Virus record (IMG/VR): IMGVR_UViG_3300043415_000014
Coordinates: 1-28,147 of that record
DNA: 28,147 nucleotides
Strand: one strand, 5' to 3'
Origin: a virus
Taxonomy: Duplodnaviria; Caudoviricetes
Under the pieces are notes generated by a model. That model did not search any database and had not been told where the DNA came from. It saw only the letters and a list, made by a program, of their open reading frames with translations. Position 1 is the first letter of the stretch; each line of letters opens with the position of its first letter. Shown in pieces: positions 1 to 28,147 of this stretch. The translations under genes and the position numbers were made by a program.

Positions 1-29
1 CTCCTGGTGTAAAAAGCCAGGAGTTTTTT
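1..29 (+). terminator. Intrinsic terminator of sRNA cassette 1 (copy of 28010..28038)
   Basis: CTCCTGG-TGTAAAAAG-CCAGGAG stem-loop followed by T6. Confidence 0.85.
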
Positions 30-57
30 GTTTTATCAATATATTAAGTTAGATTTG
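27..57 (+). promoter_or_regulatory. Bacteroidota primary-sigma promoter driving sRNA 2
   Basis: TTTG (27-30), 19-nt spacer, TAGATTTG (50-57): full match to TTTG-N19-21-TAnnTTTG. Confidence 0.8.
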
Positions 58-60
58 TAC

Positions 61-125
61 TGATTCAAGCAATTCATAGACAAATGGTTTAACCCCTTAC
101 GTTTCTACGTCGAGGGGTTTTTTTA
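61..125 (+). ncRNA. Putative small RNA 2 (about 65 nt), antisense-to-start-codon type
   Basis: Consensus promoter directly followed by about 30 unpaired nt containing TTCATAG...TGGTTT and a terminator; no credible ORF. Confidence 0.6.
91..124 (+). terminator. Intrinsic terminator of sRNA cassette 2
   Basis: AACCCCT/AGGGGTT plus ACGT/ACGT stem, TTCT loop, T-run. Confidence 0.85.
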
Positions 126-230
126 TACAAATAAGTAGACTTTACATATATATATTATTTTAATAACTCAATGTTTACGAGGGTCCTATGGCTTTAACAT
201 AAATTTAACAAAAAATAATTGTGTAAAAGT

Positions 231-2472: not shown

Positions 2473-2667
2473 ATGAAAACACAAAAACAACAAATCCAGG
2501 ATCATTTAAGCAAAGGCAAATCAATTACTCCAATACAAGCATTAAATAAATTTGGGTGCTTTAGGTTAGCTGCAAGGATAGCTGATTTAAGAAACGAAGG
2601 GGTAAATATTGCTACTAAGAATGTAACTAAGGCGGGTAAAACTTACGCAAGTTATAGCTTATGTTAA
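2473..2667 (+). CDS. Winged helix-turn-helix protein (HTH_39-like)
   Basis: IQDHLSKGKSITPIQALNKFGCFRLAARIADLRNEG. Confidence 0.8.
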   Translation: MKTQKQQIQDHLSKGKSITPIQALNKFGCFRLAARIADLRNEGVNIATKNVTKAGKTYASYSLC

Positions 2668-3533
2668 CTCATGCTTCATTATTTAGTGGAATAGGTGGCT
2701 TTGACTTAGCAGCCGAGTGGGCAGGTTGGGAAAATATTTTCCATTGCGAATGGAACCCTTTCGGACAAAAAGTTTTAGCCCACCATTTTCCTAACTCAAA
2801 ACCTTATCATGACATTACTAAAACAAATTTCTCTATTCACAACGGAAAAGTTGACGTCCTTACAGGAGGATTCCCTTGTCAACCCTACTCAATGGCAGGA
2901 AAGCGACTCGGAAAAGAAGATGAACGCCATTTGTGGCCCGAAATGCTTAGAACAATTAGAGAAGTCCAACCACGTTGGGTCGTGGGCGAAAACGTTCTCG
3001 GGATTGTTAGTTGGTCGGGGGGATTGGTTTTCGAAGAGGTGCAATCTAATTTGGAAGCTGAAGGTTACGAAGTACAAACGTTTATACTTCCAGCTGCAAG
3101 CGTCAACGCTCCGCACCAAAGACAAAGAACCTGGATTGTTGCTTACTCCGTCAACAAAGGAAGACGTAGTGAATTTGGAAACATTTCAAAAGAGAATGAA
3201 GAAGTATGCAAACGGAACGAAAATGCCGAATCTAGCGACTCAAGTAATAGGAATGTTACCGACTCCAACAACGAGGGACGCGAACGGGATAGAGAACAGT
3301 CCATCGCAAAAGGGGAAATCACGTTTAGCAGCGGATTTGGGGGATGGGACAACTTCCCAACTCAACCCTCACTTTGTCGAAGAGATGATGGGATTTCCAA
3401 ACGGTTGGACGGCATTACCTTTCCTAAATGGCGAAACGAGTCAATCAAAGCCTACGGAAACGCAATAGTTCCTCAAGTAGCTTATGAAATATTTAAGGCT
3501 ATAAATAAGTTTGAGTTATTGGTTAATAAATAG
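2661..3533 (+). CDS. DNA (cytosine-5) methyltransferase, main (alpha) polypeptide
   Basis: Motif I FSGIGG, IV GGFPCQ, VI ENV, VIII HQRQR, X GNAIVP; motif IX is missing from this frame. Confidence 0.95.
   Translation: MLTHASLFSGIGGFDLAAEWAGWENIFHCEWNPFGQKVLAHHFPNSKPYHDITKTNFSIHNGKVDVLTGGFPCQPYSMAGKRLGKEDERHLWPEMLRTIREVQPRWVVGENVLGIVSWSGGLVFEEVQSNLEAEGYEVQTFILPAASVNAPHQRQRTWIVAYSVNKGRRSEFGNISKENEEVCKRNENAESSDSSNRNVTDSNNEGRERDREQSIAKGEITFSSGFGGWDNFPTQPSLCRRDDGISKRLDGITFPKWRNESIKAYGNAIVPQVAYEIFKAINKFELLVNK
2809..3468 (+). CDS. Nested alternative-frame methyltransferase beta subunit (motif IX plus probable TRD)
   Basis: 219-codon open frame wholly inside the MTase; QLNPHFVEEMMGFPNGWT resembles motif IX; LLLTP/MLPTP repeats; true start uncertain. 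Confidence 0.75.
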   Translation: MTLLKQISLFTTEKLTSLQEDSLVNPTQWQESDSEKKMNAICGPKCLEQLEKSNHVGSWAKTFSGLLVGRGDWFSKRCNLIWKLKVTKYKRLYFQLQASTLRTKDKEPGLLLTPSTKEDVVNLETFQKRMKKYANGTKMPNLATQVIGMLPTPTTRDANGIENSPSQKGKSRLAADLGDGTTSQLNPHFVEEMMGFPNGWTALPFLNGETSQSKPTETQ

Positions 3534-3541
3534 TATATTTG
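3510..3541 (+). promoter_or_regulatory. Promoter of replication module
   Basis: TTTG (3510-3513), 20-nt spacer, TATATTTG (3534-3541). Confidence 0.85.
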
Positions 3542-3543
3542 TC

Positions 3544-3635
3544 TTGATATATGCGACATATCAATAGAAAATTTTTAGGGAGGAGGATTGACAGGTAGTC
3601 GCATTACCTGCTGGTCCAAATCCCTTTTTTATTTT
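3544..3635 (+). ncRNA. Structured cis-regulatory 5' leader with kissing-loop pseudoknot
   Basis: Hairpins TTGATAT-[ATGCGAC]-ATATCAA and CAGGTA-[GTCGCAT]-TACCTG have exactly complementary loops; second stem extends to AGGGA/TCCCT plus T-run. Confidence 0.7.
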
Positions 3636-5353: not shown

Positions 5354-5559
5354 GCAACGAAGTAAAAGGCTTAGAGAATAGCCGACCTATAAAAATGATT
5401 GATATAGAGACAAAGGAAGCTACAGAGTTTAAATCGATAGCTTATGCGGTCCGAGTAACGGGAGTTAATGAATATGCCTTAAGAAACGGTTTAAACCCAC
5501 TACAAAAGAAAAGATTTGAGGTAAATGGTAAAATCGTATGTTTTCGAGTCGTTAAATAA
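5350..5559 (+). CDS. NUMOD1-like small DNA-binding protein
   Basis: RPIKMIDIET...EFKSIAYAVRVTGV. Confidence 0.6.
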   Translation: MSNEVKGLENSRPIKMIDIETKEATEFKSIAYAVRVTGVNEYALRNGLNPLQKKRFEVNGKIVCFRVVK

Positions 5560-5561
5560 CC

Positions 5562-5569
5562 TAATTTTG
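5562..5569 (+). promoter_or_regulatory. -7 promoter element before ninG-like gene
   Basis: Intergenic TAATTTTG, 4 nt before ATG. Confidence 0.55.
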
Positions 5570-5573
5570 TAAT

Positions 5574-5945
5574 ATGCCACTAATAACTATTCCTAAATTA
5601 ACCGCTAAGGCGCAGAAGATATTTAACGCTTATATTAGGCAAAGGGATAGTCAAGATGGGTATTTTACTTGTATTAGTTGCGGACAAACGAAAGATGTTA
5701 GTCAAATGGACGCAGGGCATTACGTTCCTGTAAAGGGAAGTTCATCTTTACGCTTTGATGAATATAACGTAAACGGGGAGTGCAAAGGTTGTAATGGGTT
5801 TGACCAATTCCATTTAATAGGCTACCGAAGGAATTTAATTGATAAGGTTGGGGAACGTAAGGTAATGGAGTTAGAAATGCAACATAGGTTAATAAAGAAA
5901 TGGTCCAGGACTGAATTAAACGAAATAATTGAGCGATACAAATAA
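5574..5945 (+). CDS. ninG: NinG/Rap-family HNH-fold junction endonuclease
   Basis: AQKIFNAYIRQRD, CISCG, DAGHY, LRFDEYNVNGECKGCN. Confidence 0.9.
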   Translation: MPLITIPKLTAKAQKIFNAYIRQRDSQDGYFTCISCGQTKDVSQMDAGHYVPVKGSSSLRFDEYNVNGECKGCNGFDQFHLIGYRRNLIDKVGERKVMELEMQHRLIKKWSRTELNEIIERYK

Positions 5946-6162
5946 CATATACAAAACAATAAAGGAAGTTAAGGTAATAAACGGCCTTTTTGGTTATTCT
6001 TTTGTAATTGAAGAAATAAATCACTTTGTATATGGAAAAACTAAAGAAGAAGCCTTTAACTTTGTAGCTGATTATATAAACGAATATTATGGCAAAATTA
6101 ACAACGGGCAAAACGACGTTCGGAAAAAGAAAGTGCGGGAAAGCAAAAAAGACCTACAATAA
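5929..6162 (+). CDS. Hypothetical protein
   Basis: 77-aa ORF; start uncertain. Confidence 0.5.
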   Translation: MSDTNNIYKTIKEVKVINGLFGYSFVIEEINHFVYGKTKEEAFNFVADYINEYYGKINNGQNDVRKKKVRESKKDLQ

Positions 6163-18021: not shown

Positions 18022-20003
18022 TGGCATATAACATACATTATAGAAGTACGGCCGTTTCAATGAATGGCAATACTTACCAATTAGATATTTACGAAAAGGA
18101 TTACTCAGGTAGTATAATTACAATCCCTGTATCAACGAGTCCTTTCGTAATTAAGGCTAACGCTTCAAGCGATAATCAGTTTGAACCAATATTAGCAAGT
18201 GAGTTAAACGTAAACTTAGACATTACGGATAACCAAGACGACTTTATTGATTTTGCAAACGAGGATCAATTTAGGTATTATGCCAGGTTAACATATAGCG
18301 GTAACTTAGTATTTCAAGGTTGGATATTAGCCGACGCAATGACAAGCCCTTTCACTACGGGTAGAGTTGAATGCAGCTTTTCAATTATTGACGGGTTAGC
18401 GATGTTAAAAACAATATTTTACACTCCAACTCAACAATACACAACCGTATTAGAAACAGTTAGGGAAATTATAACTAACTGCTTAAACGCATTAAATTAT
18501 CCTCAAGGATTTAATTTAAACATTGCTACTTCGACTTTCGCGGGTGGAATGGATAACAGGGATGATGATATTTCTAACGACCCAATGAGCCAATCTTATA
18601 TGTGGCCGTCTAATTGGTTTAACGACCAACAAATTACGACTCCTGATATTAGCGATTATTATTATAGTGATTTTATTTCTTGCTATGATATTTTAGAGCA
18701 ATTATTAACGGGTTGGGGGTGTCAACTATTCCAAGCAAACGGGGAGTGGTATATTACAAACGTAAATGAAATGGCCTCCGATAATATTTATTTAAGTAAA
18801 TATGATAACGAAGGAGACCTTGTATCGGCTGCTTATGAGCCTATTAACTATACAATTAAGCCGTTCAACTTTGACGATAATTTATATTTTATAGATAATA
18901 CTCAAGCTAAAATATTAAGACAAGGTTTCTCTCAAATATATTTTAAGGCGAGTTCGGAGTTCCCTGTAAATGTTATTGATAACGGTTTCTTAAGAAGATT
19001 AACAGCTGGGAGCGCAACGAGTTGGTTAACGACTACAGGTGGAACGGGTGCGGCTACTTTTACCGTTGGGGATATTGCTAACTATTATCAATTATCAGTA
19101 ACGGCAAGTGGTTCGTCTTTTGCTTCTTTGAAATCAACATCAACGCAAGGAGTTTTTATAGGAGATAAATTAAACTTATCTTTTAATTATAAGGTTGTTG
19201 GTACTGAAGTACCTGATAAACCCGCTTGTATAGTAAGATTAGAAATTGTTGATGGTAGCACTACTTATTATTTTGCCGACGATGAAACATGGCAAATAAT
19301 GGACGGATCAAACCCTAATTATTACAAGGTAAAGGGAAGTACTACCGAATTAGAAGAAAATTCTTTCTCGGTTGAAACGGCTCCAATACCCGTAACGGCG
19401 CAATACTATTTTAGTATTTATGTTCAAAATTCAGCTTACTTAGCAGAGCCAACACAAACAAACGTTCAATTCAGCCAATTTGCGATAACATTCTCAAACC
19501 AATATTCTTATAATTTAATATCATTCCAAAAGAATGAGAACTTTCAAAATAGAAAAACGGTTGACGGGACGGTTGGTATAAACATATACGGCGATAGTAA
19601 TATTAAAGGCGCTATCGTTGATAGCTTTGGACATTATATTTACGATACATGGTATAGACAAGGCGATACAACATTTTTAGACGCTCAATCGAGTTTATTA
19701 GCTTTAACCGCTCAAGGTTATTATTATATACAATCTAAAGCCCAACTTAACGTAGAGGGGTCTTTAATGTCTTTAATGAGCAAGAAAACGGGAGCAAGTA
19801 CAAAGACTCATTTAAGTTTATTCTCTTCGTTTAAAATAGACGATATAACAACGGGTCCTAATACTTTAACGGGTAGATATTATAGCTTGGGAAACTGTGA
19901 ATTTGATTTAATAAATGATACTTTAAGTAATATTACTTTATTAGAAGTTTCTAATACTAAAATTGACTACACAAGTAAAGATGCAATTTTTACCGTTAAT
20001 TAA
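18021..20003 (+). CDS. Tail tip / hub structural protein
   Basis: 660-aa beta-rich protein after TMP; FQGWI, IIDGLAMLK, QLFQANGEWYI segments. Confidence 0.65.
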   Translation: MAYNIHYRSTAVSMNGNTYQLDIYEKDYSGSIITIPVSTSPFVIKANASSDNQFEPILASELNVNLDITDNQDDFIDFANEDQFRYYARLTYSGNLVFQGWILADAMTSPFTTGRVECSFSIIDGLAMLKTIFYTPTQQYTTVLETVREIITNCLNALNYPQGFNLNIATSTFAGGMDNRDDDISNDPMSQSYMWPSNWFNDQQITTPDISDYYYSDFISCYDILEQLLTGWGCQLFQANGEWYITNVNEMASDNIYLSKYDNEGDLVSAAYEPINYTIKPFNFDDNLYFIDNTQAKILRQGFSQIYFKASSEFPVNVIDNGFLRRLTAGSATSWLTTTGGTGAATFTVGDIANYYQLSVTASGSSFASLKSTSTQGVFIGDKLNLSFNYKVVGTEVPDKPACIVRLEIVDGSTTYYFADDETWQIMDGSNPNYYKVKGSTTELEENSFSVETAPIPVTAQYYFSIYVQNSAYLAEPTQTNVQFSQFAITFSNQYSYNLISFQKNENFQNRKTVDGTVGINIYGDSNIKGAIVDSFGHYIYDTWYRQGDTTFLDAQSSLLALTAQGYYYIQSKAQLNVEGSLMSLMSKKTGASTKTHLSLFSSFKIDDITTGPNTLTGRYYSLGNCEFDLINDTLSNITLLEVSNTKIDYTSKDAIFTVN

Positions 20004-20010
20004 TAAAATA

Positions 20011-20018
20011 TAAATTTG
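20011..20018 (+). promoter_or_regulatory. -7 promoter element before second tail-tube gene
   Basis: Intergenic TAAATTTG, 4 nt before ATG. Confidence 0.55.
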
Positions 20019-20022
20019 CAAT

Positions 20023-20721
20023 ATGGCAGACAAGGTAAATGGTAAAAATATTATGCTTTATTATCACGAAGCACCATCGGAAACTTACCCCGAAGGACGT
20101 GATATACCCTTTGCGTGTTCTACAAATTGTACTTTTAACGTACAAATAGGGCAAAAAGAAGTAACAAGCCAAACTTCGGCATGGTATAAAGAATATAAAA
20201 TCGACGTGGCTTCCTGGACAATTAACTGCGACGGGTTAGTAACTTTAAACGGGTTCAATTATTTGAATTTCTTAGATATACAAAAGAATAGGACTCCAAT
20301 AAGTGTAAAGTTTGTTATTGATAACGGAACCGATGGTTTAGTAATAATAGGCGGTACAACTAACTTAAGCAACTTTCAAATAAATGCGCCTTGGAAGGAT
20401 ATTGCAACCTATTCGGTTAGCTTACAAGGTAGCGGAGAATACACAACCGACGGAACAAATATTAACCCAAGCGGAACAATCATAGCAGGTGGAAGCGTTT
20501 ATAACAAACAATACACGGCATCGGGTGGCGAAACTACAATTACTTGGTCCGATATGATAGGCAAAACTTGTCTTTATGTATCAAGAGGCGGTGTCGATGT
20601 AAGGCAAATTGTAACGAGTAGCCCAACAGGAGAGCAAGTAGGGTGGAACTCAACAACGGGTGTATTAACATTCCCAAGAGCGTTAGAAAGCGATGAATTT
20701 GTGAGGGGGTTATTCCAATAA
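20023..20721 (+). CDS. Second tail-tube-like protein with C-terminal accessory domain
   Basis: FACSTNCTFNV..KEVTS...WTINCDGL...ATYSVSLQGSG tail-tube pattern plus about 90-aa extension. Confidence 0.72.
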   Translation: MADKVNGKNIMLYYHEAPSETYPEGRDIPFACSTNCTFNVQIGQKEVTSQTSAWYKEYKIDVASWTINCDGLVTLNGFNYLNFLDIQKNRTPISVKFVIDNGTDGLVIIGGTTNLSNFQINAPWKDIATYSVSLQGSGEYTTDGTNINPSGTIIAGGSVYNKQYTASGGETTITWSDMIGKTCLYVSRGGVDVRQIVTSSPTGEQVGWNSTTGVLTFPRALESDEFVRGLFQ

Positions 20722-20732
20722 AAATAATTATT

Positions 20733-23700
20733 ATGAGTCAACAGTTACAAATAACAGGAGGAGCAAAAGTTAGAAATCTACAAGACGTTATCGTTGGCGA
20801 TAGCGGAGTATTAAGTTCGTTGGGATTTAACGTTGCCAATGGTGTGCCAAAATTAGATACTAACGGTAAAATATTAGTTTCTCAATTGCCTAACTCCGTA
20901 ATGGAGTATTTAGGTACTTGGAACGTAGCAACAAACACTCCTTATTTAGTAAACGGAACGGGTAACGCGGGAGATGTATACTTAGTAGAGGGAGCGGCAA
21001 CGGGTGGAACATCGCACAACTTCGGAGCGGGTGCAATTACTTTCTTTAATGGCGACCAGGTTATTTACTCAGGGAGTATTTGGCAAAGAGCGACAGGATC
21101 AACGGGAAGTGTAACAAGCGTGGCAATAACTGAGAGCGGAGACGCTTTAAGCATAACAGGAAGCCCAATTACTACAAGCGGAACTATTAACATAGGATTT
21201 GCGGGTACATCGGCTCAATATGTAGCGGGAGACGGAACTTTGGTAACATTTCCTACAATAATAACCGAAGCGCAAAACTTAATCACGGAAGTATATAATG
21301 AAACGGGCGCAACTTTAACTAAAGGAACGGTTGTTTATATTAACGGCGGACATGGTAACTTACCAACGGTAACAAAGGCAATAGCTACGAGCGACATGAC
21401 TTCGGCTCAAACTTACGGGGTTATAAGAGAAGATATAACTAATAACAATAACGGATATGTAACGGTTGTTGGTAGATTAAGCAACTTAGATACTCAAGCT
21501 TATTCGGCGGGTACTCAACTTTATTTAAGTTCAACAACTGCGGGTGCTTGGACATCAACAAAACAATATGCTCCTAATCATTTAGTATATGTAGGAATAG
21601 TTGTAAGGTCGCACCCAACTCAAGGAGTAGTAGAGGTTAAAATACAAAACGGTTACGAATTAGACGAATTACATAATGTATCGGCTCAAACTCCGTCAAA
21701 TAACGATGGTTTATTTTACAATAGTTCAACTTCATTATGGGAGAATAAATCTATCGCAACTGTATTAGGTTATACTCCCGCAAATGATTCTTTAGTGGTG
21801 CATTTAGCGGGTACGGAAACAATAACAGGCGCTAAAACTTTTAGTTCAATAATAAACGCAGATACGGGTATTTTATTAAAGAATAGTTCATCGGGTCCTT
21901 CTGCATTAGGTTATATAGGATTAGGCGGGTTAAGTGGTGGCAATGGCTTAAGAGTAAATTTAAGCTTAGGTAGATACCAAGAATTAATTTTTGCGGGTAC
22001 TACAAGCGATTATTCTTTTACATTCCCAGCAACAAGTGGAACTATTGCTTTAACGAGCGACATTCCTTCTTTAAGCGGTTATGTAACAATAGCTACAACG
22101 CAAACAATTACAGGGGATAAAACTTTTGATGGTGTAAATATATTTAATGGAATTACTACATTTAATGGTATATATCAAACAAGATTCAGAAATGGTGTCT
22201 CTTTAGATAATACTTATAGCGGTGGCGGTGCTGCGGGGTATACTACGTTAGGTTCAACCAATAGTGGAATACAAATTAATTTAAGCGATGGAGCATATAA
22301 TAATTTAAACTTCCTTAATACTTATGTAGGACATACTTATTCATTCCCTAATAACTCAGGTACTATTGCGTTAACAAGTGATACCGCTAATTTTGCAGTA
22401 GGTGCGCCTTTATCTTATACTTCAGGAACTTTAACAATAAGTCAAGCTACAACAAGTACAAACGGTTATTTAAGTTCAACTGATTGGAATACTTTTAATA
22501 ATAAAGTACCAACTGCAAGAACATTAACAATTAACGGAACGACATACGATTTAAGCGCAGACCGTTCGTGGACGGTAAGCGGTTCACAATGGACTACTTC
22601 AGGAAGTAATATTTATTATACTACGGGTGCGGTATTAATTGGTAAAACTACTCAAGACGCGGGAGCATATTTAGAAGTTCAAACTCCAACAGGTGGTCCT
22701 GCAACTATTACTTGTAATTCAACAACAAGCGATAGTCCTTATATATATTTACGACAAGCGGGTTCAAGTACATTTGGAGCAATACAATCAAATACGGCTT
22801 TAGTATTTAAAACAAATAATACTGAGGCGGTTCGTATTAATACTTCTGGTAATATGGGAATTGGTACTACAAATCCAACTGTTGCTTTAGAAGTAAACGG
22901 AAGATATAGAACAACAAGTTCTTACTCTTCAGCAGGTACAACCGTTTTCGAAATATATAATGCAAGTTCTACAGGCTACGGTTTATATATGGGAGCAGGT
23001 TCGGGAACAAACTATTCTTTTAAAGTAGCTGATTATGCAAATAATGTAAGATTTACAATTTTAGGAAATGGAAATGTAGGTATCGGAACAAATCCTCAAT
23101 GGGCATTAAGTGGTTATACAGGAATAGATATAGGAAATTATGGATTAATATATTCATCAATATCATCAGGTACAAATATTGCAATTGTTAACAATCTATA
23201 TCATAATGGTTCTAATTGGATTTATAAAAATACAGGTTCAGGAAGTGGAATAGGACAAGATAGTGGAAGTATAACATTCTCAACAGTAGGTTCAGGAACA
23301 GGAGGTAATGTTGCAACAATTAATGAAAGAGTTCGTATTACTAATGCGGGTTATTTAGGGGTAAATTGCACTCCTAATGCACAATTTGAGGTATTAGGTG
23401 CATCAGGAAATCTATTAACTGATGGTATAAGAGTTTCACGAAATACTTTACAAACATCTCAGTACGGTGTTATAAATTATTCAAGTGGTATTTTGAATCT
23501 AACAGCAGTAGAAACAAGTACAGCTGGAGAAATTAGATTTAACACCAGTAATGGCACTACTTCAAATGAAAGAATTAGAATTAATGGTGCAGGACAATTA
23601 TTAATAGGAACAACAGATGGTTCTTCTTTAGCAAATTTTGTACTTGGCGGAAACACTAATCAATGTAGGGTTTTACCTGTTGCTGATGGTGGCGGATATA

Positions 23701-24038
23701 TTGGAGATAGTGGGCATAGGTGGATAGCTATATATGCTCAAAATGGTTCTATTAATACATCGGATAGAAACGAAAAGAAAAATATCGTTCCAACTGATTT
23801 AGGTTTAGATTTTGTAATAAAATTAAAACCTGTTTCTTATAATTGGAAAAAAGGAGAAAATACCGAAAAAAAGCATTATGGTATTATTGCTCAAGATGTA
23901 GAAGAATTAGCGCCTGATTTTGGGGGTGTTTGGGTTGAAGATGGTAAATATGGCTTTTCATATACTGAATTAATAGCACCATTAATTAAAGCAATTCAAG
24001 AATTAAAAGCGGAAATAGACGAACTTAAAAATAAATAA
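20733..24038 (+). CDS. Long tail fibre / receptor-binding protein with C-terminal intramolecular chaperone (peptidase S74)
   Basis: Gly/Thr/Ser-rich; GTIALTSD and GNVGIGT-type repeats; SDRNEKKNI...LKPVSY...GIIAQDV...LIKAIQEL. Confidence 0.92.
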   Translation: MSQQLQITGGAKVRNLQDVIVGDSGVLSSLGFNVANGVPKLDTNGKILVSQLPNSVMEYLGTWNVATNTPYLVNGTGNAGDVYLVEGAATGGTSHNFGAGAITFFNGDQVIYSGSIWQRATGSTGSVTSVAITESGDALSITGSPITTSGTINIGFAGTSAQYVAGDGTLVTFPTIITEAQNLITEVYNETGATLTKGTVVYINGGHGNLPTVTKAIATSDMTSAQTYGVIREDITNNNNGYVTVVGRLSNLDTQAYSAGTQLYLSSTTAGAWTSTKQYAPNHLVYVGIVVRSHPTQGVVEVKIQNGYELDELHNVSAQTPSNNDGLFYNSSTSLWENKSIATVLGYTPANDSLVVHLAGTETITGAKTFSSIINADTGILLKNSSSGPSALGYIGLGGLSGGNGLRVNLSLGRYQELIFAGTTSDYSFTFPATSGTIALTSDIPSLSGYVTIATTQTITGDKTFDGVNIFNGITTFNGIYQTRFRNGVSLDNTYSGGGAAGYTTLGSTNSGIQINLSDGAYNNLNFLNTYVGHTYSFPNNSGTIALTSDTANFAVGAPLSYTSGTLTISQATTSTNGYLSSTDWNTFNNKVPTARTLTINGTTYDLSADRSWTVSGSQWTTSGSNIYYTTGAVLIGKTTQDAGAYLEVQTPTGGPATITCNSTTSDSPYIYLRQAGSSTFGAIQSNTALVFKTNNTEAVRINTSGNMGIGTTNPTVALEVNGRYRTTSSYSSAGTTVFEIYNASSTGYGLYMGAGSGTNYSFKVADYANNVRFTILGNGNVGIGTNPQWALSGYTGIDIGNYGLIYSSISSGTNIAIVNNLYHNGSNWIYKNTGSGSGIGQDSGSITFSTVGSGTGGNVATINERVRITNAGYLGVNCTPNAQFEVLGASGNLLTDGIRVSRNTLQTSQYGVINYSSGILNLTAVETSTAGEIRFNTSNGTTSNERIRINGAGQLLIGTTDGSSLANFVLGGNTNQCRVLPVADGGGYIGDSGHRWIAIYAQNGSINTSDRNEKKNIVPTDLGLDFVIKLKPVSYNWKKGENTEKKHYGIIAQDVEELAPDFGGVWVEDGKYGFSYTELIAPLIKAIQELKAEIDELKNK

Positions 24039-24040
24039 AT

Positions 24041-24379
24041 ATGACAACTTATAATTGGGTAATTAATCAATTAGATACAAAGCCTCAAGAGGACGGCTTA
24101 ACCGACGTAGTAATAACAGTACATTGGACTCGCACCGCAGAGCAATTTGTAGGCGGGGAACCTATCAACGTATCAGTATACGGAACAATGCCATGTACTA
24201 CTCCAAGCGCAACGGACTTTACCGCTTATCCTGATTTGACATACGAGCAAGTTTGCTCATGGTTAGACGCTGGGTTAGACGTAGCGGCAATTGACTTAGG
24301 TTTGGACCAACAAATCGAGAACATAATTAACCCGCCCGTAATTGTTTTGCCTTTGCCTTGGCAAATTCCAACTAATTAA
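24041..24379 (+). CDS. Tail-fibre-associated protein
   Basis: YNWVINQLD...VITVHW...FTAYPDLTYEQVCSWL; position after fibre. Confidence 0.65.
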   Translation: MTTYNWVINQLDTKPQEDGLTDVVITVHWTRTAEQFVGGEPINVSVYGTMPCTTPSATDFTAYPDLTYEQVCSWLDAGLDVAAIDLGLDQQIENIINPPVIVLPLPWQIPTN

Positions 24380-24382
24380 TTA

Positions 24383-24390
24383 TATATTTG
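24383..24390 (+). promoter_or_regulatory. -7 promoter element before lysis region
   Basis: Intergenic TATATTTG. Confidence 0.55.
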
Positions 24391-24405
24391 TAAAAAATAA
24401 ATACT

Positions 24406-24549
24406 ATGTTACAATTAAACGAGGCACAAATTAAGGAGTTAGAAGCGTTTTTATTAGAGATTCCTGCTAAGTACGCTAACCCTATTTTTCAATTTTTAGG
24501 TAAAGTTGCTCAAGAAAGCGCACCTAAGGAAGATTCAAACGAAGCGTAA
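24406..24549 (+). CDS. Small helical protein, 47 aa (not in ORF track)
   Basis: MLQLNEAQIKELEAFLLEIPAKYANPIFQFLGKVAQESAPKEDSNEA; TAATG coupling. Confidence 0.72.
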   Translation: MLQLNEAQIKELEAFLLEIPAKYANPIFQFLGKVAQESAPKEDSNEA

Positions 24550-24767
24550 TGAGTAATATTGTCGTTTTCTTGGTGGGCCAGGCCTTAACTATTATCATAG
24601 GTTTAATTAGTATCTATGTGAAAGTATCTTTAAAACTTAAGGAACTTGAGGTGCGCGTAAACATGGTAGAAAAGCAAGAGGATAACATCGCCAAGAAACT
24701 CGACAATATTCAGCAAACTTTAAACGCTTTAGCAATAGCATTGCAGAATAAACAAGACAGAGAATAA
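24549..24767 (+). CDS. Membrane-anchored coiled-coil protein (holin/antiholin-like)
   Basis: N-terminal TM followed by heptad repeats, in the lysis cluster. Confidence 0.6.
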   Translation: MSNIVVFLVGQALTIIIGLISIYVKVSLKLKELEVRVNMVEKQEDNIAKKLDNIQQTLNALAIALQNKQDRE

Positions 24768-25303
24768 TGAAAGACGTCGTTATTACAATATTAATAGCGA
24801 TAGTTATTATTCTATTCTTTAGAACATCGACTTACCGCAAAAATGATCCTATTGTTATTACGCAATTAGATACGGTTTACCAACAGAAAACTTTTACTAA
24901 ATATACTAAGGGGGACTCAATCCCTTTTATAGTTTTAGCGGTTGATACTACGACAATACACGATACAATTAAAATAGTTAGCGATTATTTAACGACTAAG
25001 CTATTTACGGACACTTTTACAATAGATAGTTCGCATTTTACCATAATTGACACAATAAGCGAAAATTCAATCAAGGGGAGGCAGTTTAAAGCCGATTTAC
25101 ACGAAAAAACGATATTTGTAACTAACAACATATACCAAAAGGCTAAGAATGAACTTTATTTCGGTTTTTTAGGCGATTTAAGAGCATTTGATAATAAATT
25201 AGGCATAGGAGTTGGCTTTGGATTTAAAACGGTTAAAAACGGCTTATTTTCGATTTCGGCTTCGACAAATGGTTATTCGGTTGGTTACTATAAAAAGTTT
25301 TAA
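24767..25303 (+). CDS. Putative spanin-like envelope protein
   Basis: N-terminal TM, Thr/Asp-rich beta stalk (DTVY, DTTTIHDTI), amphipathic C-terminal strands ending YYKKF. Confidence 0.55.
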   Translation: MKDVVITILIAIVIILFFRTSTYRKNDPIVITQLDTVYQQKTFTKYTKGDSIPFIVLAVDTTTIHDTIKIVSDYLTTKLFTDTFTIDSSHFTIIDTISENSIKGRQFKADLHEKTIFVTNNIYQKAKNELYFGFLGDLRAFDNKLGIGVGFGFKTVKNGLFSISASTNGYSVGYYKKF

Positions 25304-25304
25304 T

Positions 25305-25487
25305 ATGAAGAATGTAAAAGCGTGGAAAACGACTTTAGTAGGCTTAATCTTAATCGGTGGCGGTTTGGCTTCCGTTTACATGGGAAAGGCTGATTGGTCG
25401 GGTGCAATAATTATAATCGGTTTGGGAATTGGGTTAATATTTAGCCCTGATACTGTAATAAATAAGTTAACCAATAAGAATGATTAA
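25305..25487 (+). CDS. Putative holin (2 TM)
   Basis: KAWKTTLVGLILIGGG...GAIIIIGLGIGLIFSPD directly before endolysin; start moved to ATG 25305. Confidence 0.7.
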   Translation: MKNVKAWKTTLVGLILIGGGLASVYMGKADWSGAIIIIGLGIGLIFSPDTVINKLTNKND

Positions 25488-26085
25488 CAAAAAGTCAATA
25501 GATTTTATTATTCAACACGAGGCGGGAGGTCGAGCGTACTATGATAAAGTATTGCAGAAACCGACATGGCCAGGTGGCGAAAGTGGAATTACTATTGGTT
25601 TGGGTTATGATTTGGGTTATAACACGGAAAAACAATTCATAAAGGATTGGGGAACTACATTAAGCGAGGCAAACGTTAAAACATTAAAAACGGTTATCGG
25701 ATTTAAAGGACAAAAAGCTAAGTTGAGTTTAAAGGGCGATTTGTTAAATATTCGTATCCCGTACAATATTGCTTACGATGTGTTCGTTAAAAGTTCGGTG
25801 CCAAGATTTTACAAATTAGCGTTGAGCATTTATCCTAAAATGGTTAATCTTAACGAGGACACTCAAGGCGCTTTAGTTTCTATGGTATTTAATAGAGGCG
25901 CAAGTTTAATAGGCGATTCAAGAAAGGAAATGAGAGCGATTGTTGATTTGATTGAAAAGAAAGATTATGAAGGGATAGCAGAAGAGATTGAAAAGTCTAA
26001 ACGGCTTTGGGAGCATAAAGGACTCGACGGCCTGGTTATAAGGCGAGAAGCGGAAGCGGACATGATACGAGACTCAATTTGTTAA
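25480..26085 (+). CDS. Endolysin, lysozyme-like (GH24/pesticin-C type)
   Basis: IIQHE, SGITIGLGYDLG, ALVSMVFNRG, GLVIRREAEA. Confidence 0.88.
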   Translation: MINKKSIDFIIQHEAGGRAYYDKVLQKPTWPGGESGITIGLGYDLGYNTEKQFIKDWGTTLSEANVKTLKTVIGFKGQKAKLSLKGDLLNIRIPYNIAYDVFVKSSVPRFYKLALSIYPKMVNLNEDTQGALVSMVFNRGASLIGDSRKEMRAIVDLIEKKDYEGIAEEIEKSKRLWEHKGLDGLVIRREAEADMIRDSIC

Positions 26086-26093
26086 AAGTTTGG

Positions 26094-26101
26094 TATCTTT
26101 G
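26094..26101 (+). promoter_or_regulatory. -7 promoter element before HNH gene
   Basis: Intergenic TATCTTTG. Confidence 0.5.
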
Positions 26102-26118
26102 GTAAAATCAAAAAATAT

Positions 26119-26622
26119 ATGACAAAGACATTTTTTTTACCTAAGTATTATACTATTGAAATTGAGGATCAAACAGGCGAAGTAAAAGTTTATTCTAATT
26201 CTAAACACGCTAAAGGACGAGAATTAACTAAAAAAATAAATTCTTACGGGTATTTAGATATTAAAATGAATAATAAAACTTATACTATTCATTCATTGGT
26301 TGCTAAATATTTTTTAGGTGAGAGACCAAAAGATTTATGTATTAATCATATAGACGGTAATAAATTTAATAATGCGCCTTCAAACTTAGAGTATGTAACA
26401 ATAACTGAAAATATAAAACATTCAATAAAAACAGGTTTACATATTTGCAATACTCCTGAAAAAATGGGTAGATATATAGATGGTAGGTGTAAGGATAAAG
26501 TAAAATATAAAAGAGAATGGTATCTTAAAAATAAACAACGCATCCTTGAAAAGATGAAAAAAAACTACAATGACAACAAACAACAACCAACTAAAAACAA
26601 AACGCAAAAGACTTTACTTTGA
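26119..26622 (+). CDS. HNH homing endonuclease (HNH_3 type)
   Basis: IHSLVAKYF...INHIDGNKFNNAPSNLEYVT..EN..H. Confidence 0.9.
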   Translation: MTKTFFLPKYYTIEIEDQTGEVKVYSNSKHAKGRELTKKINSYGYLDIKMNNKTYTIHSLVAKYFLGERPKDLCINHIDGNKFNNAPSNLEYVTITENIKHSIKTGLHICNTPEKMGRYIDGRCKDKVKYKREWYLKNKQRILEKMKKNYNDNKQQPTKNKTQKTLL

Positions 26623-27322
26623 TTGTGAGGTAAGCCCAAACATCGGTTTCTTTTGGACCGCAGGATTTAAATTAAACATAAGCACGGAAAGCATTATTAA
26701 GGAACGTGCAATCATTTGTATTTGTTACAAATGGGAAGAGGAAAAAGAAACTCACGCTTTACATTGGGACGCTAAGCAGAATGATAAAAAAATGCTACAA
26801 GACTTTATCAAAGTAGCAAATGAAGCCGACGAATTAGTAGGACATAACGGCGATAAATTCGACTTAGCTTGGGTCCGCACTCGTTGTTTATTTCATAGAA
26901 TAGATATGTTCCCAACATATACAACCATCGACACTTTAAAGGTCGCTAGATCAAAGTTTAAATTCAATTCAAATAAACTTAATTACATAGCTAAATATTT
27001 AGGTATTGGGCAAAAGATTCATACCGATTACGACTTATGGAAGGACATCGTATTGAATAAGGATAAAGCAGCTATGGATAAAATGATTAAGTATTGTAAA
27101 ATGGACGTTATCTTATTAGAGAAAGTTCATAAAGAATTATCGTTACATATACCCGCTAAAACGCATTATGGAGTTATCTTTGGAGGAGAAAGAGCCTCAT
27201 GCCCTGAATGCGGAAGCGATGATTTAGTAAGAAACAATAAAAGGGTATCGGCAAGCGGGTTAGTTAAGATACAAATGCGTTGTAATACCTGCGGGAAATT
27301 TCATACAAAAACTGATAAATAA
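26570..27322 (+). CDS. RNase H-like / DnaQ-fold 3'-5' exonuclease with C-terminal zinc ribbon
   Basis: FDCE, GHNGDKFD, IDTL, YCKMDV; CPECG...CNTCG. Confidence 0.88.
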   Translation: MTTNNNQLKTKRKRLYFDCEVSPNIGFFWTAGFKLNISTESIIKERAIICICYKWEEEKETHALHWDAKQNDKKMLQDFIKVANEADELVGHNGDKFDLAWVRTRCLFHRIDMFPTYTTIDTLKVARSKFKFNSNKLNYIAKYLGIGQKIHTDYDLWKDIVLNKDKAAMDKMIKYCKMDVILLEKVHKELSLHIPAKTHYGVIFGGERASCPECGSDDLVRNNKRVSASGLVKIQMRCNTCGKFHTKTDK

Positions 27323-27519
27323 TGGATTCAAATATTTTAACATTGGTAATTGAAGATATGCGTAAGCGAGAAGCTAAAGGGAAATTAGAATACGGAACAA
27401 CTTTAGACCGTAAAGACTTAGGCGATAAAGAATGGATGTTATACGCTTATGAAGAGGCCTTGGACTTAGCGTTATATTTACGCAAGATTATTGAAAACAG
27501 TAACGATAAAGTATATTAA
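27322..27519 (+). CDS. Small all-alpha NTP pyrophosphatase-like (MazG-like) protein
   Basis: REAKGKLEYGTTL...AYEEALDLALYLRK. Confidence 0.6.
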   Translation: MDSNILTLVIEDMRKREAKGKLEYGTTLDRKDLGDKEWMLYAYEEALDLALYLRKIIENSNDKVY

Positions 27520-27520
27520 T

Positions 27521-27712
27521 ATGAAGTACCCTAAAACATGGAATAAAATGAGTTTAAGTGAGCAAGAAAATTGGTTAGTAAAGAAATTAACCGAAATATA
27601 CAACCAAGAAGCGGAAATTAAAAGAATGTTAGGTAAGGTTCGTGGCGGTCAAAAAATTAACGTAATAATTGAAGAAAGACCCGATTTATTGGAAATGAAA
27701 GATGAAAATTAA
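27521..27712 (+). CDS. Hypothetical protein
   Basis: ORF starting MKYPKTW, tightly packed with neighbours. Confidence 0.6.
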   Translation: MKYPKTWNKMSLSEQENWLVKKLTEIYNQEAEIKRMLGKVRGGQKINVIIEERPDLLEMKDEN

Positions 27713-27971
27713 AATTATTCATAAAAAGTTAGGAAGAGAACAAGCGCACGGCATAGCTGAAAGCGACGGTGTAATCTATATTGATCCTCGTTTAAAGGGA
27801 CGTAAGAAACTTGAGATTTACATACACGAGATATTTCACTTACTCAACCCTGAAGACACGGAGGAGCAAGTGATTGAAAAGAGCGTTACGCTAACTAAAA
27901 TACTATGGAATTTAGGCTATCGTCAAGTGGACAATAGTAAACATTTACCGCTCCAAGACGGCTCTAAATAA
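27702..27971 (+). CDS. Minimal HExxH zincin-like metallopeptidase
   Basis: GIA...IYIDPRL...IHEIFH...EEQV. Confidence 0.75.
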   Translation: MKIKIIHKKLGREQAHGIAESDGVIYIDPRLKGRKKLEIYIHEIFHLLNPEDTEEQVIEKSVTLTKILWNLGYRQVDNSKHLPLQDGSK

Positions 27972-27976
27972 AAAGG

Positions 27977-27984
27977 TATATTTG
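27977..27984 (+). promoter_or_regulatory. -7 promoter element driving sRNA 1
   Basis: TATATTTG 5 nt after last stop codon. Confidence 0.6.
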
Positions 27985-27987
27985 TAA

Positions 27988-28038
27988 CGTTGTTTTTCAT
28001 AGTTGGTTTCTCCTGGTGTAAAAAGCCAGGAGTTTTTT
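27988..28038 (+). ncRNA. Putative small RNA 1 (about 50 nt), antisense-to-start-codon type
   Basis: Promoter, then TTGTTTTTCATAGTTGGTTT, then terminator; 14-nt perfect complement to 2466-2479. Confidence 0.62.
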
Positions 28039-28135
28039 GTTTTATCAATATATTAAGTTAGATTTGTACTGATTCAAGCAATTCATAGACAAATGGTTTA
28101 ACCCCTTACGTTTCTACGTCGAGGGGTTTTTTTAT
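28010..28135. repeat. Terminal direct repeat, right copy
   Basis: Identical to 1..126. Confidence 0.97.
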
Positions 28136-28147
28136 TGAATATGTCCA

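Follow-up and report, generated by a model that had tools for sequence, protein, structure and literature searches.

The closest described counterparts of the locus analysed here are FopS (RF04319) and GibS (RF04182) of B. thetaiotaomicron. According to the available sections of the FopS report, FopS comprises 14 paralogous sRNAs, each with a single-stranded 5' seed followed by a terminator and made from a primary promoter, which repress translation of SusC mRNAs of the host by pairing near their start codons; the same text also notes one copy in Caudovirales (PMC11697453). Pairing over start codons is described as the means of repression for both FopS and GibS in the accessible parts of PMC11697453 and PMC7366714, the second of which also provides the -7/-33 promoter consensus of Bacteroidota; SD-less initiation of translation in this phylum is treated in the available text of PMC6847099. 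Regarding phages, the sRNAs acting on phage genes that appear in the accessible text of PMC12197685 are sar, OOP, aQ, and c4, with P1 c4 and BTP1 STnc6030 as precedents for RNA immunity, and the string "Bacteroid" is absent from that text. A literature search by title and opening of the abstract, with subscription journals mostly outside its coverage, returned no sRNA of a Bacteroidota phage directed against its own early genes.

Genome setting and anatomy of the tandem units

The sequence analysed (the window, 28,147 nt) is the whole IMG/VR record IMGVR_UViG_3300043415_000014, a Caudoviricetes virus from freshwater estimated to be 95% complete. A 126-nt terminal repeat sets the length of the genome unit at 28009 nt, and the junction sequence was found, identical and read straight through, in another locus (L001). 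The main genes all lie on the + strand: small early genes, an ERF recombinase, an HTH_39 protein, a methylase, and a replication gene, and then the terminase, structural, and lysis genes. The nearest relative of the terminase is that of Flavobacterium phage 11b (53%), followed by those of other Bacteroidota phages, so by this gene the virus belongs among the relatives of Bacteroidota phages. No tyrosine integrase (PF00589) was found in the window or in the five relatives at least 98% complete (5/5), and no HTH_3 repressor (PF01381) in the window, in agreement with the initial annotation, which had seen no protein repressor in this genome. The C5 methylase gene (2661–3533) contains, in a different frame, an open frame of 219 aa (2809–3468).

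The pair of units lies after the last gene of the late region (27702–27971, + strand; 89 aa, without Pfam or PHROG match) and before the early promoter of the target operon (231–261, + strand; -33 TTTG, 19 nt, and -7 box). Unit 1, on the + strand like unit 2, begins directly after the stop codon with a -7 box of the form TAnnTTTG (27977–27984), without a -33 element, as in the late-region boxes of this genome. The predicted +1 at 27989, four nt after the box as in FopS, opens a free seed (27989–28009) antisense to a start-codon region, followed by a terminator hairpin with an A-rich loop (28010–28032), supported by folding and covariation, and by six T (28033–28038). Unit 2 has a complete promoter (28036–28066), whose -33 TTTG (28036–28039) is embedded in the T run of unit 1 and separated by a 19-nt spacer from the -7 box (28059–28066); its free segment (28071–28101) starts at the predicted +1 at 28071 and leads to a second terminator hairpin (28102–28126; with a TTCT loop in most relatives) and seven T (28127–28133). 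Both free segments contain TTCATAG, with TGGTTT further downstream, and in unit 2 of the window the first seed copy is degenerate compared with the relatives. The two tandem arrangements of box, free segment, and hairpin first described for this locus, the embedded -33 element, and the shared motif were all recovered at their positions.

Folding z-scores on the + strand ranged from -3.1 to -4.2, with the seed of unit 1 predicted to be mostly unpaired and the 3' part of the unit 2 segment to be only partly open. The 325-nt junction region contains two units composed of box, TCATA, hairpin, and T run, whereas not one was obtained in 2000 dinucleotide shuffles. A copy of positions 28010–28135 is found at 1–126 (+ strand), and the initial annotation had also assigned unit 2 to positions 27–126; the sequence there is indeed identical, but it is not extra DNA, being one stretch seen twice through the terminal repeat. 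As this copy corresponds to the repeat overlap and L001 runs through the junction, only two units exist, and there is no third one. The last 12 nt (28136–28147) do not match the circular continuation that starts at 127 and were found in no other of 478 loci; they are probably an assembly branch or a strain variant just after hairpin 2.

Eight boxes in the late region of the window lack the -33 element, and the boxes at 254, at 3534, and in unit 2 have it. The late boxes with only a -7 element suggest, from their sequence, a class of activator-dependent late promoters. Two -7 boxes (5562–5574 and 20011–20023) stand only 4 nt before an ATG and would give leaderless mRNAs. In addition, an inverted repeat (3544–3564) was detected upstream of the replication gene, immediately following the 3534 promoter, and its 6-nt half-site recurs in the spacers of the early promoter (248–253) and of unit 2 (28043–28048); the repeat is perhaps a candidate operator for the HTH_39 protein. 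The RNA contigs of one run (share 0.16) showed low depth over parts of 20000–27343 and none over 27344–28147, contigs being unable to show RNAs of 50 nt.

Conservation of the pair in related loci

Relatives were retrieved through the last late gene, which gave 47 loci, one of them truncated and left out. Exactly two units follow the stop codon in 27 of the remaining 46, none in 14, and a minus-strand gene takes their place in five; more than two hairpins within 1 kb of the site were found in no locus (46 loci). Having two units or none at this site, these loci contradict the modular array of variable unit number that had been proposed. The minus-strand genes that replace the pair differ from one another (79–151 aa; L009 2706–2942, L014 4304–4603, L023 4256–4708, and L025 4284–4523), and the protein encoded in L023 has an HExxH motif. 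An additional gene of 142 aa, with a -7 box of its own, is inserted directly after unit 2 in L403 (412) and L411 (1491).

Hairpin 1, represented by 32 distinct sequences, shows changes on both sides in seven of its eight stem pairs, with 95% of the cells paired versus 30–53% in slid controls. Hairpin 2 folds in 40/40 copies despite the turnover of its stem sequence, mostly around the TTCT loop. A -7 box (TTTG, or a variant ending in TTAG) is present ahead of unit 2 in all 40 parsed copies, one of the 41 loci being unparsed. Regarding the box of unit 1, it was scored in 20 of 38 loci, to which one mis-parsed locus has to be added, and it is missing in the other 17, the seed of these loci starting directly at the stop codon. 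No -33 element was found for unit 1 in the window or in the 38 loci scored (0/38), and unit 2 has one in 18 of them. The CATAG core turned out not to be universal, since CAT is missing from the free segment in 5 of 39 unit-2 copies, and in the two of these loci that were scored, unit 2 nevertheless pairs with the recombinase start of the same locus.

The initial annotation had itself pointed to conserved minus-strand micro-ORFs as an alternative to RNAs directed against start codons. These micro-ORFs range from 1 to 77 aa and their frames shift between loci; therefore, this alternative is removed, and the conserved small ORF on the opposite strand that is a feature of type I toxin–antitoxin systems was likewise not found. 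A related explanation is that the units are ordinary terminators placed after inverted remnants of gene starts (e.g., of a lost minus-strand gene) or after micro-ORFs, without any regulatory RNA. It would be in accordance with the five of 46 loci that have a real minus-strand gene at the site, some of them with a similar start context, and with the counts of G-U versus A-C changes (7 vs 4 and 0 vs 3), a test of pairing at the RNA level that showed no clear preference. However, apart from the shifting frames, the -7 box is kept ahead of unit 2 in all the parsed copies, the seeds follow distant and even non-homologous genes, as described below, and the terminator of the capsid gene lacks the seed in 6/6 genomes of the window's group, on which basis a generic terminator motif was also rejected. 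We therefore regard an origin as gene-start remnants as very improbable.

Predicted pairing with early gene starts

In the window, the unit 1 seed has a perfect complement of 14 nt (2466–2479, + strand) that spans the start codon (2473) of the HTH_39 protein (PF14090; 2473–2667, + strand), a winged-helix protein of 64 aa that is the predicted main target of this unit. The duplex with this start is the best one on the whole + strand (-21.9 kcal/mol, the next one being of -18.0), and the region around the start is predicted to be open. Taken alone, the 14-nt match is modest evidence; 23 of 1000 shuffled seeds reached a match of this length somewhere in the genome. A search for homologues of the HTH protein returned 539 relatives, and none of the 120 matches listed had an informative name. 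For unit 2, the best pairing within the window corresponds to the start of the first early gene (287–400, + strand; 37 aa), and the start of the ERF-family recombinase (1199–1777, + strand), with only a moderate fit, is the third of 39 hand-set starts (-12.8). Across relatives, covariation with unit 2 is seen both for the start in the recombinase slot, which to a lesser degree covaries with unit 1 too, and for that of a conserved early gene of no known family (414–713, + strand; 99 aa). The predicted RNA genes are located 0.3–2.5 kb from their targets, and the pairing is imperfect.

The targets tested in the relatives were picked from the window's own top matches. For unit 1 and the HTH start, own pairs had a mean of -18.3 versus -15.6 kcal/mol for foreign ones (36 distinct seed/start pairs from 47; 0/20000 permutations). 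The HTH start was ranked first among 33–109 ATG sites in 14 of 36 loci, or in 16 if the strand antisense to the seed itself is not counted, and the match was poor (ranks 9–77) in five. In L029–L032, one base has been lost in both the seed and the HTH start, in L004, one base is swapped in both, and in L409, L044, and L440, the 5' part of the seed is altered to follow codons 2–4. In type E loci, it is the recombinase start that fits the unit-1 seed best (-21.0). Unit 2 keeps its match to the recombinase start irrespective of the protein encoded in the slot (ERF, RecT, or unclassified), and in type I loci, whose unit 2 has no CAT, it still pairs better with its own recombinase start. In two loci (L462 and L467, about 5482–5997), a 167-aa ORF with an HTH-like beginning lies just upstream of the HTH gene and bears the start context that sister loci have at HTH, as though the targeted start had been taken over by an insertion.

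Seeds were collapsed to nine types for permutation tests at the type level (20000 permutations). The advantage of the own partner amounted to -3.0 kcal/mol for unit 1/HTH, -4.9 for unit 2/recombinase, and -3.1 for unit 2/99-aa gene (0/20000 in the three cases), with smaller values for unit 1/recombinase (-1.1, p 0.024), unit 2/gene 710 (-1.4, p 0.014), and unit 2/HTH (-0.5, p 0.08), and it was absent for two late genes (p 0.24–0.99, nine seed types). Cross-type swaps favoured the own partner in 490 of 550 cases for unit 1/HTH and in 549 of 571 for unit 2/recombinase, and for the two late genes, in 47/105, 62/100, 44/101, and 7/97, counts that, like those of the permutations, are not independent, because seed types are clustered on the tree (10 changes for 9 groups). 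For three further control genes, the starts recovered were too few (0, 0, and 7). Disjoint nearest-pair sign tests were non-significant (8 vs 5 of 17; 9 vs 4 of 18). With weighting by size, the three main pairings reached p values of 0.019 (0.072 when an event that recurs is counted a single time), 0.012, and 0.004, compared with 0.33 and 0.84 in two crossed controls. In six complete or near-complete genomes, with 44–53 called starts each, HTH was among the top three for unit 1 in all six, and the recombinase was among the top three for unit 2 in five, the exception being the window, in which an ATG further upstream had been called. Unit 1 moreover follows the start of a late-region exonuclease (-1.9 kcal/mol, p 0.0055; own partner favoured in 128 of 144 swaps), a covariation that is not predicted by a pure early shut-off.

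From the anatomy, conservation, complementarity, and covariation observed, we infer with moderate confidence that trans-acting RNAs encoded in this locus shut down the early programme of an integrase-less phage by covering early start codons. The two units would be transcribed into RNAs predicted to be of about 50 and 63 nt, and by analogy with FopS and GibS, their free ends would cover the open starts of early genes in trans and block translation. The RNA of unit 1 would act on the HTH_39 start, and often on that of the recombinase too, and the RNA of unit 2 on the starts of the recombinase and the 99-aa early gene. Unit 1 would be a late product that shuts off the synthesis of HTH and recombinase, its timing being suggested by a -7-only box like those of the late-region genes or by the lack of a box in 17/38 loci, in which the RNA would be the 3' end of a late transcript. 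Unit 2, with its early-type -33 in 18/38 loci, may act earlier, as a damper on the recombinase and the first early genes. Since the seeds match the starts of early genes and change with them, it is likely that they switch off those genes without a protein repressor. Regarding the repression by RNAs directed against AUG codons that was initially proposed, small RNAs of this kind on the + strand are supported by the covariation of hairpin 1, the preserved folding of hairpin 2, the maintained box of unit 2, and the lack of conserved micro-ORFs, and the phage's own early genes are now indicated as their targets, but the variable array is not.

The same RNAs and targets could instead constitute an immunity or carrier-state system that silences a resident genome or superinfecting kin, the seed types being immunity groups. 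The covariation would fit equally well, as seed and target have co-diverged into nine types; foreign starts still pair at about -15 kcal/mol on average; the promoter of unit 2 is of the host type (-33/-7) in 18/38 loci; and P1 c4 and BTP1 STnc6030 are precedents, as presented in the accessible text of PMC12197685. However, neither a PF00589 integrase nor an HTH_3 repressor was found, unit 1 closes the late region and has either a box of the late type or no box, and the capsid has a single relative, of 41%, in 401 sampled genomes of one phylum, with no such unit in the two stretches read around this distant relative (G107), so that we consider an immunity function unlikely.

It is also conceivable that the units are generic anti-start regulators of host mRNAs like FopS, and that the match to phage genes derives from a start context shared with the host. 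In fact, unit 1 has 13 contiguous nt and the box-to-+1 spacing of FopS, the seeds resemble the generic A-rich start context, and FopS is described, in the available sections of its report, as repressing host SusC mRNAs and as having one Caudovirales copy (PMC11697453). In contrast, the match extends into codons 2–4 of specific phage genes and tracks lineage-specific changes, and the two units favour different genes, which makes host mRNAs quite improbable as the targets.

Little is known about how expression is ordered in small Bacteroidota phages that lack integrase and repressor, and the shut-down of early genes by these RNAs would offer a concrete RNA-only mechanism with named targets. As natural compensatory pairs exist and the targets are named, it is directly testable in a reporter. 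In addition, a 50-nt unit of promoter, seed, and terminator, naturally retargeted several times, could be a compact knock-down scaffold for Bacteroidota.

Wider spread and comparison with described RNAs

Of the 14 loci that lack the pair, five were searched over the whole record, and all of them gave matches (best E values from 2.5e-5 to 0.08). The eight matches read in these records (L481–L488) consist of seed and hairpin directly after structural-region stop codons, in phages whose capsid-region genes differ from those of the window. For six of these eight seeds, the best of 27–40 ATG sites was the first or second early gene, and the two from L007 fitted poorly. In GTDB chromosomes, the unit-1 pattern had 106 matches, two of them with a terminator and both in the same Bacteroidota genome (G003), which contains twice a FopS-like single unit (L369, about 626, and L387, about 301) that the unit-1 model scores at 20–28 bits. 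The unit-2 pattern matched one of four genomes, and the unit-1 model gave one weak match in 61 genomes of one family. The pattern scans of viral sequences were samples, covering 3 of 64 parts in one case (8 of 121 matches with hairpin and T run) and 39 of 64 in the other (44 of 120 with terminator). Among 19 loci from the unit-1 pattern scan of viral contigs, eight were true FopS copies, with 69–82 bits against RF04319, and none of the freshwater-type loci were. The unit-1 model in turn scores 7/7 FopS-positive loci at 25–30 bits, although a similar pattern had served to retrieve these loci. Other viral contigs (L064, L068, L074, L080, L130, L414, L415, and L429) also contain single segments resembling the seed, each with a hairpin after it whose TTCT-type loop is the same or almost so.

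As a broader and tentative reading, which we hold to be possible but doubtful, FopS-type RNAs may be, in essence, a developmental switch of phages, by which small Bacteroidota phages would silence their early and replication genes with RNAs from the 3' end of the late region, without a protein repressor; the seed–target groups would also exclude kin, and the FopS and GibS of the host would have been recruited from phages. Be that as it may, the predicted targets in the phage's own early genes are what is new here, and the covariation of seeds and targets is the main new evidence.

When compared with other phage RNAs, no match of the window to a C4-type model was found among 4227 Rfam families at E ≤ 5. 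P1 c4 and P4 CI are processed immunity factors that act on antirepressor or leader RNA, and the P22 sar and lambda OOP loci overlap their targets. The present units would resemble P4 CI, and P1 c4 as it is described in the accessible text of PMC12197685, in being phage RNAs that pair in trans with an early mRNA of the same phage. They differ in having one hairpin with an open 5' seed, in their predicted targets, the start codons of HTH and recombinase genes, and in the temperate context, given the absence of PF00589 from the window and 5/5 relatives and of PF01381 from the window. With P22 sar, lambda OOP, and aQ, as far as the available part of PMC12197685 presents them, they would share being small phage RNAs that lower a phage regulator. 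Those, however, are antisense RNAs of temperate phages encoded at loci that overlap their targets (for aQ, according to that same text), whereas here the targets are distant and the pairing is imperfect.

The units had initially been left without any named family, and the Rfam scan of the window (4227 families, E ≤ 5) gave only two chance-level matches and no named family; FopS and GibS are nevertheless a close and experimentally studied analogue. The FopS model (RF04319; gathering score of 56 bits) had no match in the window at E ≤ 5 or E ≤ 10, and neither had that of GibS (RF04182), an RNA of 142 positions with R1 and R2 seeds, the predicted phage units being of 50–63 nt. The likeness is one of design: in both units of the window, a TAnnTTTG -7 box precedes by four nt the predicted 5' end, a G in FopS and GibS, and an unstructured, U-rich 5' seed with the complement of a start codon is followed by a single intrinsic terminator. 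At the sequence level, 13 contiguous nt are common to unit 1 and a FopS copy and correspond to only the 5' part of the full R1/R1' seed, and the 3' extension of this seed is approached only by unit 2 of some relatives, that of L192 resembling it. Because of the box spacing, the 13 shared nt, and the absence of a match to the models, the units can be described as FopS-like by anatomy and not as members of these families, although they may be distant kin. Pairing over the start codons of the targets, by which FopS acts, is for the phage units a prediction from complementarity and covariation.

Nevertheless, there are clear differences from FopS and GibS. The phage seed is shorter and varies among lineages, whereas that of FopS is fixed; the phage units are arranged as a fixed pair in tandem, in a freshwater phage of the lytic type, in contrast to the 12–15 chromosomal copies; and they are predicted to target HTH and recombinase genes of the phage itself and not the SusC transporters of the host. 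The design of FopS and GibS would thus be extended from the metabolism of gut bacteria to the control of a phage, which bears on the proposal, present in the available sections of PMC11697453, that phages spread FopS.
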